Translations under genes and position numbers: made by a program
The notes under the pieces: generated by a model
Database searches by the model: none
Seen by the model: the letters and a program-made list of their open reading frames with translations, nothing else
Told to the model about the DNA's origin: nothing
In this document: one piece after another, positions 46,994 through 48,081 of the stretch
How the letters are laid out: each line of letters begins with the position of its first letter
Position numbering within the stretch: position 1 is the stretch's first letter
Assembly: GCA_948954545.1 (NCBI GenBank)
Contig: CARCRR010000028.1
Span: forward strand, 1-48,081
Reading direction: 5' to 3'
DNA: 48,081 bases
Source of the DNA: an uncultured Lachnospiraceae bacterium
Lineage (GTDB): Bacteria; Bacillota; Clostridia; Lachnospirales; Lachnospiraceae

Positions 46994-47061
46994 TCGAAAG
47001 ATTATATAAATGCAACCGTAAACCATGCAACACCCTATGTGGGAGAAAGGGGGAATCGTTT

Positions 47062-47652
47062 ATGCCCTGCACAGAAGCATACAGAGAACACATCATGTAT
47101 ACGTTCAATGGCTATTGCAAGACCGTCATACGCTTTGCGGCTATCAACGCATGGCGTGACAGGAGCAGACGGCGGCAAAAGGAAATATCCCTTGAATACC
47201 TCACAGAAGAAAAGTTTTACCCTTTAGGCACAACAGATGAATATTTTGAAACACCCTATGAAGAATACCCCGTTACGATATGCGGTCAAACTTGTATTGC
47301 GGGAGCTGCCGCCAGCCTCAAAGACCGCAACGAATATATCTCCCGCCTTTGCAGCTTCCCCTTGCTTATCCTTGATGATTTCGGCATGGAGCGTGGCACG
47401 AAATACGGCTTAGGGCAAATCTATAACGTGATTGACAGCCGATACCGCAGCGGCAAGCCGTTAATCATGACAACGAACCTCACGCTGGAAGAATTGCAGA
47501 ACCCGGAGGACACCGCCCACGCCCGCATTTATGACCGCCTTACAGAAATGTGCTGCCCCGTCTGCATTACCGGGGAGAATTTCAGAAAAGCCAAAGCACA
47601 GGCGAAAATGGAACGCCTTAAAATGCTGCTGAACAGAAAGGAGAGCCTATGA
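47062..47652 (+). CDS. IstB/DnaC-like AAA+ helper-domain protein (has Walker B, lacks a canonical Walker A), typical of integrative elements.
   Basis: LLILDDFGMERGTKYGLGQIYNVIDSRYRSGKPLIMTTNLTLEEL matches the IstB/DnaC C-terminal half. High local GC; RBS GGGAGAAAGGGGG. Confidence 0.55.
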   Translation: MPCTEAYREHIMYTFNGYCKTVIRFAAINAWRDRSRRRQKEISLEYLTEEKFYPLGTTDEYFETPYEEYPVTICGQTCIAGAAASLKDRNEYISRLCSFPLLILDDFGMERGTKYGLGQIYNVIDSRYRSGKPLIMTTNLTLEELQNPEDTAHARIYDRLTEMCCPVCITGENFRKAKAQAKMERLKMLLNRKESL

Positions 47653-47846
47653 CCGACACCCCCAACAGAAGCACCGCCACTACCGCCCGCCGCCCGGATT
47701 GCGTGACCGAGGTACGCCGGGGGAACACCGTCCTTGTGGTTTCCGGCTACTTCAAACAAGGCACTACCGCCACCGCCGCCGACAAGATGATGAAAGTGCT
47801 GGAAGCGGAAAGCGCAGCCGGGGGAACAGCCGCACACGCTATGTAA
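47649..47846 (+). CDS. Small hypothetical protein (65 aa, T/A-rich). It overlaps the upstream stop (ATGA), and is probably element-encoded.
   Basis: Translationally coupled ORF in the GC-rich block. Confidence 0.4.
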   Translation: MTDTPNRSTATTARRPDCVTEVRRGNTVLVVSGYFKQGTTATAADKMMKVLEAESAAGGTAAHAM

Positions 47847-47978
47847 TGCGATAAGCCTTAATAAAATAATGTGATATTTTTCGACATAAAGTAGCAAAAA
47901 GGACTGTACAGCCAGCCCCGCCCTATGGTATAATAGACCTACGGAATAGTGGGCTGGCTGTCGGAAACGGAGGAATCT

Positions 47979-48081
47979 ATGTCAAGACAGACCACCCAAA
48001 CACTTATTACCGCCCTTTATCCGAGATTATCCCATGAGGACGAGCTGCAAGGCGAGAGCAATTCCATAAGCAACCAGAAGC
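47979..48081 (+). CDS. Large serine recombinase, N-terminus (partial, runs off the window).
   Basis: MSRQTTQTLITALYPRLSHEDELQGESNSISNQK matches the resolvase-domain catalytic N-terminus (YxRLS…DE…Q) of clostridial transposon/ICE serine recombinases. RBS GGAGG 7 nt upstream. Confidence 0.7.
   Translation, partial: MSRQTTQTLITALYPRLSHEDELQGESNSISNQK

Follow-up and report, generated by a model that had tools for sequence, protein, structure and literature searches.

Introduction

The elements Tn4451 and Tn4453 of Clostridium perfringens and C. difficile encode TnpX, TnpV, CatP/D, TnpY, TnpZ and TnpW. TnpX is a protein of about 700 aa, TnpZ is a MobV/Pre relaxase with an RSA site, and the core dinucleotide of Tn4451 is GA. 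According to Lyras et al. 2004, as this work is cited in PMC5704250, the recombinase of these elements carries out both excision and integration on its own.

IME_Rho_tet, whose canonical copy is IME_RhoA2_183_maff2-1 of Roseburia hominis A2-183 (Sidibe, Doublet & Leclercq 2026, PMC12904643), is a 10.7 kb element that contains mobC, a relaxase gene and a serine recombinase gene and has 21-bp terminal inverted repeats (TIRs), about 656 bp upstream of tet(W). In the same study, 45% of the copies are found in MAFF2 ORFs, and the 3′ boundary is located 81–90 bp past the stop codon (PMC12904643).

Here we describe the right-hand end of a Lachnospiraceae MAG contig, which was analysed over its whole length (48,081 bp, hereafter the window) and which ends 103 nt into a recombinase gene. 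This end is GC-rich, and it is very probable that it is a degenerate copy of a serine-recombinase IME of the IME_Rho_tet/'IME_maff2' (Tn4451-like) family. Since this family is well known from gut bacteria, the GC-rich end is ordinary rather than new.

Results

Composition of the contig end and the family to which it belongs

The GC content of 500-bp windows ranges from 0.298 to 0.474 over positions 1–47000 and is 0.472 and 0.540 in the last two windows; elsewhere on the contig, all 500-bp windows stay below 0.50, and the peak in 200-bp windows (0.59) is at 47600–47799. By segment, it is 0.401 for 1–45332, 0.386 for 45333–47000, 0.505 for 47001–48081 and 0.529 for 47307–48081, which amounts to a climb from about 0.40 to 0.50–0.59. 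These windowed values confirm the abrupt shift that an earlier note, made from the sequence alone, had placed near 47040; homology to the backbone of the family begins earlier, at 47001. The step occurs because the family backbone has a GC content of 53–63%, and cargo and host 34–40% (in the relative L001, the values are 0.53–0.63 for the backbone versus 0.34 for the cargo).

The intact members are 9.6–10.7 kb long and contain, in this order, the 5′ TIR, the cargo, genes for sigma-like and HTH_16 regulators, MobC, a relaxase, a RepA_N replisome organiser, a DnaC/IstB-like loader, TnpW and a TnpX-like recombinase, and the 3′ TIR (...TCTCACATGAGCAAA). The latter is located 84 bp past the recombinase stop in L001 and L122. 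The right-hand order IstB–TnpW–recombinase is found in 10/10 intact relatives, which agrees with the earlier proposal that the contig closes on the recombinase end of a clostridial mobilisable element, although what we see is a relic of such an element and not an intact one. A 639-aa protein of the Tet(M/W/O/S) type (1236 bits) is encoded in L122, at a distance of 645 nt from the left TIR; the termini and backbone of L122 and the position of its tet gene fit the description of IME_Rho_tet, which links our sequences to the published family (PMC12904643; the match is to the written description).

Over 9.64 kb, five copies share 99.9% identity; their ends are sharp and their five flanks are all different. 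Keeping a single AA restores the full Maff2 ORF in L002, L003, L006 and L007, which are ICE-borne copies. Intact members move through an exchange that the recombinase mediates at a 2-bp AA core; their attP is ACATGAGCA-AA-TGCTCATGT, and their preferred attB is inside the maff2 gene of conjugative elements, whose mating pore carries them.

The left terminus and the insertion site

The left terminus (attL, 45333–45355, forward strand) consists of the AA crossover at 45333–45334 followed by the half-site TGCTCATGTACGGTAAAGAAG, which is the 5′ TIR. In 9 other loci, whose left flanks are unrelated, the element begins with the attL sequence too. Over 45333–45355 (AATGCTCATGTACGGTAAAGAAG), it is identical to the left terminus of L001–L007 and L010, and 1 nt separates it from that of L122, which carries tet; the motif is single-copy in the window, and BLAST homology to L001–L010 begins exactly at 45333 (L001 2397). 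This AATGCTCATGTACGG terminus opens a conserved 5′ end segment of 101 bp (45333–45433, forward strand), which is 95% identical to L001 2397–2497 and its equivalents in L002, L004, L006 and L010, and 84–90% identical to L003, L007, L008 and L009.

To the left of the element is AT-rich intergenic DNA, located upstream of addB, and not a MAFF2 ORF; L001, L004, L008 and L009 likewise occupy secondary (non-MAFF2) sites. No strain with an empty site was found, including in a TIGR04076 scan of genome contigs (80 loci from many phyla, none from the host species), so the left junction is defined by its coincidence with the family terminus and not by a before/after comparison. With up to 5 mismatches allowed, neither the window nor the sister contigs, including the relic-type L011 and L012, contain the 3′ TIR. 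In all likelihood, the element entered the chromosome at a secondary site upstream of addB (attL at 45332|45333) and brought a redox-type cargo with it.

An internal deletion and an in-frame fusion

On the forward strand, the segment 47001–47306 covers the first ~80 codons of the sigma-like gene together with the region upstream of it (92% identity to L003 4650–4940, 93% to L008 3722–4008), and 47307–47652 is the 3′ part of a gene for an IstB/DnaC-like (PRK08116) ATPase. Both contribute to one ORF of 196 aa (47062–47652), whose 5′ half is the sigma-70 region-4-type 'transcription factor' gene of the family: over residues 1–78, the identity with the 152-aa Sigma70_r4 protein from L003 is about 93%. 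Residues 87–191 match the last 102 positions of NCBIfam PRK08116 (167–268 of 269, E 7.9e-41), and the ORF covers positions 148–234 of 238 of Pfam IstB_IS21. Walker B, the sensor and the C-terminus are present, while Walker A (GMVGTGKS, about residues 133–140 of the 283-aa intact protein) falls upstream of the breakpoint and is absent. The earlier note had correctly read a C-terminal IstB/DnaC-like fragment without Walker A, but it took the ORF for a single gene and missed that the first ~80 residues come from a different one.

The deletion junction (47292–47313, forward strand), which was located by aligning the window three ways with the two parental regions in L003, L007 and L008, contains a microhomology, (C)TTGCCGCC, common to the sigma-like gene and istB. 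The 15 nt at 47292–47306 resemble neither parent well, and we therefore infer the exact crossover point. A crossover at the microhomology TTATCCTCA was considered and rejected, since the sigma-derived GGGAGC is retained downstream of it in the window. In terms of L003, 47001–47291 corresponds to 4650–4940 and 47307–48081 to 9659–10434; the missing ~4.7 kb (4941–9658) encodes HTH_16, MobC, the 543-aa relaxase, Cys_rich_VLP, the RepA_N replisome organiser and the N-terminus of IstB. The relaxase and MobC, whose genes are a signature upstream of the recombinase, are absent from the window as a result of this deletion. The deletion of the ~4.7 kb, which was probably microhomology-mediated, joined the sigma-like gene in frame to the 3′ part of istB. 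It took out all that mobilisation and replication require, and the element is probably no longer mobilisable.

The size of the fusion ORF depends on the strain (171, 182, 196 or 208 aa), as expected of a pseudogene. An exact look-up of the 196-aa protein returned no record, and independent fusions onto the IstB C-terminus occur elsewhere (P0002, P0014 and relaxase–IstB proteins). The idea that the fusion ORF encodes a conserved functional protein was discarded: its length and N-terminus vary between strains, and the similar fusion P0014 is found in another decayed context.

tnpW and the start of the recombinase gene

The next ORF (47649–47846, forward strand, 65 aa) is tnpW (Pfam PF14202 TnpW, E 7.8e-11); its ATG overlaps the TGA of the preceding ORF, as had been pointed out before (ATGA). 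The exact TnpW protein occurs in 853 blocks of the assembly collection, invariably in the order IstB–TnpW–recombinase. Upstream of the recombinase gene, the segment 47905–47961 (forward strand) holds a promoter-like site (TGTACA, 18 nt, TG-n-TATAAT), which has an extended −10 and, at 10/12, is the region's best promoter match; it is enclosed by a perfect 11-nt inverted repeat (47908–47918/47951–47961), and the site is conserved in the relatives. Rfam searches, at gathering thresholds over the whole window and at E≤1 over 44600–48081, returned nothing in the region of the element.

The first 34 codons of a gene for a TnpX-like large serine recombinase (47979–48081, forward strand), with the catalytic-serine motif LYPRLS, are cut by the contig end. 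Over 47979–48080, 31/34 residues are shared with the beginning of the 540-aa L001 recombinase, so that the recombinase N-terminus recognised in the earlier note is upheld. The 540-aa relatives have the domains Resolvase, Recombinase (PF07508), Zn_ribbon_recom (PF13408) and DUF4368, and their catalytic domain matches TnpX (PDB 2mhc) at E 2.5e-48. Via L001, the region of the serine nucleophile, LITALYPRLSHED, aligns with RITALYERLSRDD of TnpX; the window contains only the first 34 residues of the domain. The signature large serine recombinase is seen as 34 codons, on a terminal stretch of uncertain origin.

Sister strains and the origin of the last 457 bp

Most sister strains have a truncated tnpW, in which an ICMT gene replaces the 3′ end of tnpW and the 5′ end of the recombinase gene; they keep only a 759-bp internal recombinase fragment, and the right terminus is absent. 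The earlier note had counted a lone recombinase fragment against a mobile element at this end, and such a fragment is indeed what most sister strains carry. The relic is fixed at the addB site in the host species, an uncultured Lachnospiraceae bacterium, and has decayed further in most strains, where tnpW was cut, ICMT was inserted, an internal piece of the recombinase gene was left and the right terminus was lost.

The window and the sister contig L012 have 0 mismatches over 36676–47624 (10.9 kb); the next 197 bp contain 19 mismatches and a gap of 3 nt, and homology ends after 47821. Position 47625, where this divergence begins, is the start of a terminal stretch of probably different origin (47625–48081, forward strand). 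The relic-type strains L139 and L141 diverge from the window only from 47708. L140 is identical to L141 over 2.9 kb and then diverges; like the window, it stops inside the recombinase gene, the starts of the two genes being ~14% different. Nucleotides 605–928 of the L140 recombinase gene are 96% identical to the relic fragment and 85% identical to L001, which agrees better with a true, contiguous tnpW–recombinase allele at the locus than with a random chimera. A 43-mer from the start of the window's recombinase gene was found in 34 family members among metagenome contigs, all of them from other strains and lacking the fusion, and gave no extension of the contig; blastn of 47001–48081 against a plasmid collection gave no match.

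The identity to L012 up to 47624 implies that the last 457 bp are either a secondary patch or a wrong turn of the assembly. Active members of the family share exact stretches of up to 69 nt with the relic just left of 47625, as exemplified by L126 over 47556–47717. We propose, on the basis of these alignments, that the last ~370–457 bp, with the consensus-like tnpW and the start of the recombinase gene, would come from a second family member and would not have been inherited with the relic. Most likely, the assembler took a false path through a shared repeat where the contig ends; otherwise, homologous recombination would have introduced a patch.

It is possible, if rather doubtful, that the contig end is genuine, with a contiguous intact tnpW and a full-length TnpX-like recombinase gene, attR being located beyond the end of the contig. 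The locus would then be either in the ancestral, uninterrupted state, or an ICMT-disrupted relic repaired by homologous recombination with an incoming member; the element could still excise and integrate, but would not be self-mobilised. In favor of a genuine end, the arrangement recurs in another MAG contig, L140, which has at least 309 codons of a recombinase gene whose nt 605–928 belong to the relic clade of the species (96% to L141 and L144, versus 85% to L001), and the 34 recombinase codons, the promoter-like site and tnpW are all intact in the window. Moreover, 0/44 family loci are identical to the last 457 bp (the best reaches 95.6%), so this stretch is not simply an abundant co-assembled element. 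On the other hand, the 10.9 kb of identity with L012 gives way to an abrupt switch, and the same is true of L140 and L141. The relic-type block is common to strains that are 1–3% apart (L012, L139 and L141) and is therefore ancestral to the clade that contains the window. The ~14% difference between the two recombinase starts would demand that two recent events took place independently, each with a different donor; the two contigs of this type both terminate within the recombinase gene, and contigs that are 100% identical to the window break at 47158–47522.

A related scenario, which we regard as unlikely, is that the fixed ICMT-disrupted relic is repeatedly 'healed' by patch recombination with incoming IME members, and that this happened independently, with different donor alleles, in two strains that are nearly clonal with their counterparts (window versus L012, L140 versus L141). 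Were it true, chromosomal relics would be landing pads that regain a working recombinase and could re-mobilise cargo.

The cargo and the position of the host–element junction

Whatever the origin of its last bases, three genes stand at the left of the relic. An HxlR/RrpA-like MarR-type regulator is encoded on the reverse strand at 45455–45862 (Pfam HxlR E 1.9e-30, NCBIfam RrpA-like E 2.2e-38; the gene callers chose a 115-aa start). A flavodoxin-like FMN reductase gene (45914–46655, forward strand) is split into two ORFs, 45914–46141 and 46254–46655, both of which have FMN_red and Flavodoxin_2 matches; a structured repeat inserted at 46109–46274 divides the gene, dropping these 166 nt restores the frame, and the sister strains L139–L142 have an intact ORF of 193 aa. 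A TIGR04076 family protein (46676–46993, forward strand, NCBIfam E 9.6e-24) has relatives with 70–89% aa identity in Bacillota, Bacteroidota, Desulfovibrionaceae and Methanobrevibacter. The HxlR gene sits between the 5′ end segment and the sigma-like gene, that is, in the variable cargo slot of the family, which in relatives is filled by UvrD and OmpR-type, TetR and ABC, GntR and ABC, WYL or MFS genes, or tet. No EF-G-like ORF, as a ribosomal-protection tetracycline-resistance gene would give, is found between 45333 and 47062. Since the three genes (45434–47000) occupy the cargo slot, ~47001 is a boundary between cargo and backbone.

The earlier note had instead put the host–element junction (attL or attR) at 46994–47061, which would make HxlR, FMN reductase and TIGR04076 host genes. 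The GC content and GC skew of 45455–46993 are host-like, and backbone homology starts at 47001, 8 bp past the TIGR04076 stop. This reading is nevertheless very improbable: the family terminal sequence is at 45333, 1.7 kb further left, and none is present at 46994–47061; 47001–47061 is the region upstream of the sigma-like gene, which lies 2.3–2.6 kb inside intact elements (L003 4650–4710); low-GC cargo beside a high-GC backbone is normal for the family; and the junction between TIGR04076 and the sigma-like gene recurs in an unrelated Lachnospiraceae MAG, L088, whose homology crosses the TIGR04076 stop codon into the sigma-like gene (46763–47119, 82%).

It is scarcely credible that the IstB-like fragment is what remains of an IS21-family insertion sequence (IstA/IstB), or that the gene trio is part of a prophage that encodes a serine integrase and a loader of the DnaC type; both readings were rejected, because the weak matches to Pfam IstB_IS21 (E 2.9e-07) and NCBIfam IS21_help_AAA (E 1.3e-10), and the fact that temperate phages also carry large serine recombinases and DnaC-like loaders, are outweighed by PRK08116 being the best model, by an IS21 helper score of 41 bits against a cut-off of 200 (profile positions 141–231 of 232), by the absence of IstA from the window and 10/10 intact relatives, and by the location of the relatives' IstB-like gene between the replisome organiser and TnpW, near MobC and the relaxase, with no phage structural genes.

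Discussion

These results correct the map of the locus: the element starts at 45333, and the three seemingly 'host' genes are its cargo. Since the GC step is inside a mobile element, a compositional step can pass for the edge of an element. A backbone recently named for disseminating tet(W)/tet(32) also ferries cargo unrelated to resistance, namely a redox module here and helicase, ABC-transporter and regulator genes in relatives, and this backbone decays through recurrent deletions onto the 3′ end of istB. The ends of MAG contigs call for caution, the sole evidence for a recombinase at this locus being the 103 nt at the tip of a contig whose end is a repeat common to many elements. The understanding of how such elements work is unchanged.

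Comparison with known elements

The termini and backbone of the window copy are those of L122, which is a complete copy with a Tet(W)-type gene, and the family resembles IME_Rho_tet in several respects: cargo, two regulators, mobC, relaxase, several small or unknown genes and the serine recombinase follow one another on one strand; the elements are bounded by TIRs, with a 3′ end that is 84 bp past the recombinase stop in relatives; MAFF2 is preferred but secondary sites are used; complete copies are fewer than partial ones, and the hosts include Lachnospiraceae. Unlike IME_Rho_tet, the window copy has no ribosomal-protection gene and carries HxlR, FMN reductase and TIGR04076 genes instead; it is in an intergenic chromosomal site beside addB and not in maff2, and its 3′ TIR would lie beyond the end of the contig. 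Its relaxase and mobC genes being deleted, it falls outside the definitions of both 'complete' and 'partial' copies, which are anchored on the ribosomal-protection gene (PMC12904643).

IME_ScoC232_maff2_site1 and IMESp2907, which are found in Tn5252-superfamily ICEs, also have a single large serine recombinase, replisome organiser and DnaC-type genes (Guedon et al. 2017, PMC5704250), and they too are inserted in the Maff2-related gene of an ICE and have very short direct repeats at their ends (PMC5704250). In contrast with these streptococcal elements, compared here by description, the window copy is outside an ICE and has lost the maintenance and mobilisation genes. Tn6104 of C. difficile, located in a Tn5252-related ICE, is another serine-recombinase IME nested in an ICE conjugation gene, with a replisome organiser and DnaC; unlike the present family, it targets traG/virD4 and not maff2 (PMC5704250; again compared by description).

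With respect to Tn4451 and Tn4453, the family differs by its AA core, by the relaxase of the intact relatives (MobC/MobC_2 and PF03432, not a MobV-type TnpZ), by their replication module (RepA_N and DnaC-like), by the position of tnpW, which is directly upstream of the recombinase gene and not at the opposite end, and by the size of the recombinase, 540 aa, unlike TnpX. Like these elements, it has a TnpW-family protein and undergoes exchange at a 2-bp core, and TnpX (2mhc) is the closest solved structure to its recombinase.

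Limits and composition of the element

The exact TnpW protein encoded near the right end of the window is found in hundreds of assemblies, and the gene order around it is always [cargo]-[Sigma70_r4]-[HTH_16]-MobC-relaxase-(Cys_rich_VLP)-RepA_N/replisome organiser-IstB-like-TnpW-serine recombinase. A 9.64-kb copy, 99.9% identical, occurs in five different flanks (loci L001, L002, L004, L006 and L010, which hold intact relatives), which delimits the mobile unit to the base: its left end is AATGCTCATGTACGGTAAAGAAG... and its right end ...CTTCTTTATCTCACATGAGCAAA, 84 bp past the recombinase stop. 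The flanks of the ICE-borne copies are the two halves of a maff2 gene. In four independent copies, joining the flanks with one AA kept gives a full Maff2 ORF, while joining them without AA does not, which indicates that exchange takes place at a 2-bp AA core, as a serine recombinase would be expected to do, with ACATGAGCA-AA-TGCTCATGT as attP.

In the window, homology to this family starts at 45333, exactly base 1 of the element in other loci, and runs over 101 bp; no second copy of this terminal motif was found elsewhere in the window. Backbone homology restarts at 47001, 8 bp past the TIGR04076 stop, and the region matching 47001 onward lies 2.3–2.6 kb inside intact elements, in the upstream region and start of a sigma-like gene. 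The host/element junction, which the earlier note placed at 46994–47061 or beyond the right end of the window, is therefore placed at 45333.

The same note was right that the right end is distinct in composition: GC is 0.298–0.474 in 500-bp windows over 1–47000 and 0.540 in the last full window, 200-bp windows reach a maximum of 0.59, and the segments 1–45332, 45333–47000 and 47001–48081 have values of 0.401, 0.386 and 0.505. It is the reading of this step as the host/element edge that is contradicted, since in L001 the cargo has 34% GC and the backbone genes 53–63%, so that the step is the boundary between cargo and backbone. GC skew is about -0.3 throughout 1–45500, where nearly all genes are on the minus strand, and goes positive exactly at the start of the plus-strand genes of the element.

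Cargo

The 1.57 kb between the 5′ segment and 47001 encode an HxlR protein, a flavodoxin-like FMN reductase and a TIGR04076 protein. In L088, another Lachnospiraceae MAG, homology is continuous from TIGR04076 across its stop into the sigma-like gene. Relatives have tet, UvrD+OmpR-type, TetR+ABC, GntR+ABC, WYL or MFS genes in the same slot; the tetracycline-resistance definition of this family, whose backbone is named for tet(W)/tet(32), is too narrow. On the backbones of L001–L010 and L122 (a complete, tet-carrying copy) the slot follows the 5′ end segment and precedes the sigma-like/MobC genes. Among the other cargos, an ABC transporter accompanies either TetR (together with a hydrolase) or GntR; the rest are a UvrD-like helicase and an OmpR-type regulator, WYL and a Zn-ribbon protein, or an MFS transporter.

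The cargo ORFs are intact in most strains, the FMN reductase having later been split by a host repeat in the lineage of the window; it may be that the host has retained the cargo of the relic. The TIGR04076 protein (46676–46993) keeps 70–89% amino acid identity across very distant taxa (loci L018–L097), with relatives in Bacillota, Bacteroidota (Alistipes), Desulfovibrionaceae, Gastranaerophilales and Methanobrevibacter/Methanosphaera. Its gene directly adjoins an HxlR gene in L024, L068 and L091, and the two appear to have spread horizontally as a pair among gut organisms.

An internal deletion and a fusion ORF

Positions 47001–47291 correspond to 4650–4940 of L003, an intact relative, and 47307–48081 to 9659–10434, about 4.7 kb being absent. 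The 196-aa ORF at 47062–47652 (+) is a fusion: its residues 1–78 are about 93% identical to a 152-aa sigma-like protein, and from residue ~83 it matches residues 168–283 of a 283-aa IstB-like protein (residues 87–191 match PRK08116/IstB-type ATPases over their last 102 positions). The sigma-like gene and istB have TTATCCTCA...CTTGCCGCC in common, and the sigma-derived GGGAGC is kept directly before TGCCGCC, which probably places the crossover within that microhomology. The deletion has taken HTH_16, MobC and the relaxase as well as the replisome organiser and the half of the loader that bears Walker A, and, judging from its sequence, the window copy can probably neither be mobilised nor replicate any longer.

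Among strains the fusion ORF has 171, 182, 196 or 208 aa, with different starts and ends, and thus behaves as a pseudogene; the sister proteins of the 196-aa cluster are annotated as from 'Lachnospiraceae bacterium' MAGs. Many database proteins are fused onto the same IstB 3′ part; they include P0002 (with a different breakpoint), relaxase-IstB and RepA_N-IstB proteins, and P0014, in which the LAA breakpoint recurs within another decayed context. They suggest that deletions in the family repeatedly end in the 3′ half of istB. In P0002, P0014, P0051, P0072, P0076, P0083 and P0104, sigma-like, relaxase, RepA_N or replisome organiser genes are fused onto the IstB C-terminal part.

The three ORFs of the right end are as first described, an IstB-like fragment being followed by a small coupled ORF, tnpW (47649–47846, +; Pfam TnpW), whose ATG overlaps the preceding stop, and by the start of a large serine recombinase (47979–48081, +), identical at 31/34 residues to 540-aa proteins. 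These recombinases of relatives have the domains Resolvase, Recombinase, Zn_ribbon_recom and DUF4368, and their catalytic domain matches TnpX of Tn4451 (PDB 2mhc) with an E-value of 2.5e-48. A short distance before the recombinase gene, a perfect 11-nt inverted repeat (ACAGCCAGCCC / GGGCTGGCTGT) encloses the best sigma-70-like promoter of the region (47905–47961; TGTACA, 18 nt, TG-n-TATAAT). This arrangement is conserved across the IME family, and it may serve as an operator or form a 5′ leader structure that controls recombinase expression.

States of the locus and origin of the last base pairs

The locus adjoins addAB in every sampled relative (97–100% identity) and exists in three states. 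In state 1 (sister-strain contigs L011, L012, L139 and L141), the fusion is followed by a 64-aa tnpW′ (about 13% diverged from 47708), an ICMT methyltransferase gene on the minus strand, a recombinase remnant (a 759-bp internal fragment, nt 605–1362 of the gene) and host DNA, and no 3′ TIR is found. In state 2 (L142–L145), the fusion is cut at 47604, and ICMT and the same recombinase fragment follow. State 3 (the window, which is a complete contig of 48,081 bp, and L140) comprises the fusion, a consensus-like tnpW and the recombinase start, both contigs ending inside the recombinase. The ICMT/PEMT-family gene, on the opposite strand, lies on a ~680-bp segment (L011 11144–11823; also in L139, L141 and L142–L145) that takes the place of 761 bp (tnpW nt 175 through recombinase nt 604). 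Beside it, 114 bp of tnpW have diverged by about 13%, with changes strongly biased from G/C to A/T, the neighbouring istB part being unchanged.

State 1 is common to strains 1–3% apart, and is therefore older than those strains. The window has no mismatch to L012 over 36676–47624 (10.9 kb); past 47624 there are 19 mismatches and a 3-nt gap in 197 bp, and homology is then lost. Likewise, L140 and L141 are identical over 2.9 kb and then diverge, and the recombinase starts of the window and L140 are ~14% different. Just left of 47625 the relic contains stretches of up to 69 nt that agree exactly with active family members, and contigs 100% identical to the window break at 47158–47522. The simplest reading of these sequences is that the last ~370–457 bp were joined to the relic via the shared repeat, and we favour the assembler as the cause. 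The alternative is a patch of homologous recombination, by which relics would be 'healed' by incoming relatives. One result runs counter to the simplest reading: nt 605–928 of the L140 recombinase group with the relic fragment (96%) and not with L001 (85%).

Dispersed repeats and RNA genes

The repeat that splits the FMN reductase gene (46109–46274, +) is about 160–166 nt long, and its removal restores the reading frame. Other copies, intergenic and co-directional with genes, lie at 1–62, 23609–23719, 25556–25672, 27791–27911 and 32540–32691 (all -), the left end of the contig falling within one of them, and at L011 13736–13901 and L139 110–275 and 13350–13515. The predicted fold has three hairpins closed by a long stem (-82.3 kcal/mol, z = -8.1); the repeat is modular, one or two hairpins being missing in some copies, and seven predicted pairs have changes on both sides. 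It has no Rfam match at E<=1. In L139–L142 the FMN reductase is intact, the empty site being GATGATTTGACTTCA, and this target sequence recurs in the repeat's own 3′ end (GATTTGACT). The repeat resembles a MITE, REP or PATE-like element of the host.

A second family, of about 190 nt, has copies at 44748–44937, 2733–2922, 8627–8902, 12890–13076, 29340–29530 and L011 14216–14406 (81–94% identity). One copy, at 8659–8834 (-), is the Rfam TwoAYGGAY match of the window (68.2 bits). No Rfam family matches the copy upstream of addB at E<=1, so that TwoAYGGAY may here belong to a repeat dispersed over the genome. At 33637–34099 (-) the window also has a tmRNA gene (160 bits) and, next to it, a tRNA; a second tRNA lies at 9188–9270 (-), near the TwoAYGGAY match.

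Mechanism and comparison with known elements

Intact members would rely on TnpX-like serine recombination at the AA core both to leave a site and to enter one, and would transfer by means of their own MobC/relaxase through the pore of the ICE that harbours them. In the literature on Tn4451, such excision and integration are reported to require no directionality factor (PMC5704250). Apart from a possible recombinase, attL and the cargo are all that the window copy retains; it is a fixed relic.

IME_Rho_tet measures about 10.7 kb and encodes mobC, a relaxase and a serine recombinase. It has 21-bp TIRs, a stretch of about 656 bp upstream of tet(W), and a 3′ boundary 81–90 bp past the stop; 45% of its copies are in MAFF2 ORFs, and partial copies outnumber complete ones (PMC12904643). 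The ends and backbone of L122 are those of our mobile unit, and its 639-aa Tet(M/W/O/S)-type gene lies 645 nt from the left end; these features agree with the published family (PMC12904643). The older 'IME_maff2' class, with its replisome organiser and DnaC, is a match as well (PMC5704250). The window copy is an ordinary, degenerate, non-tet member of a described family.
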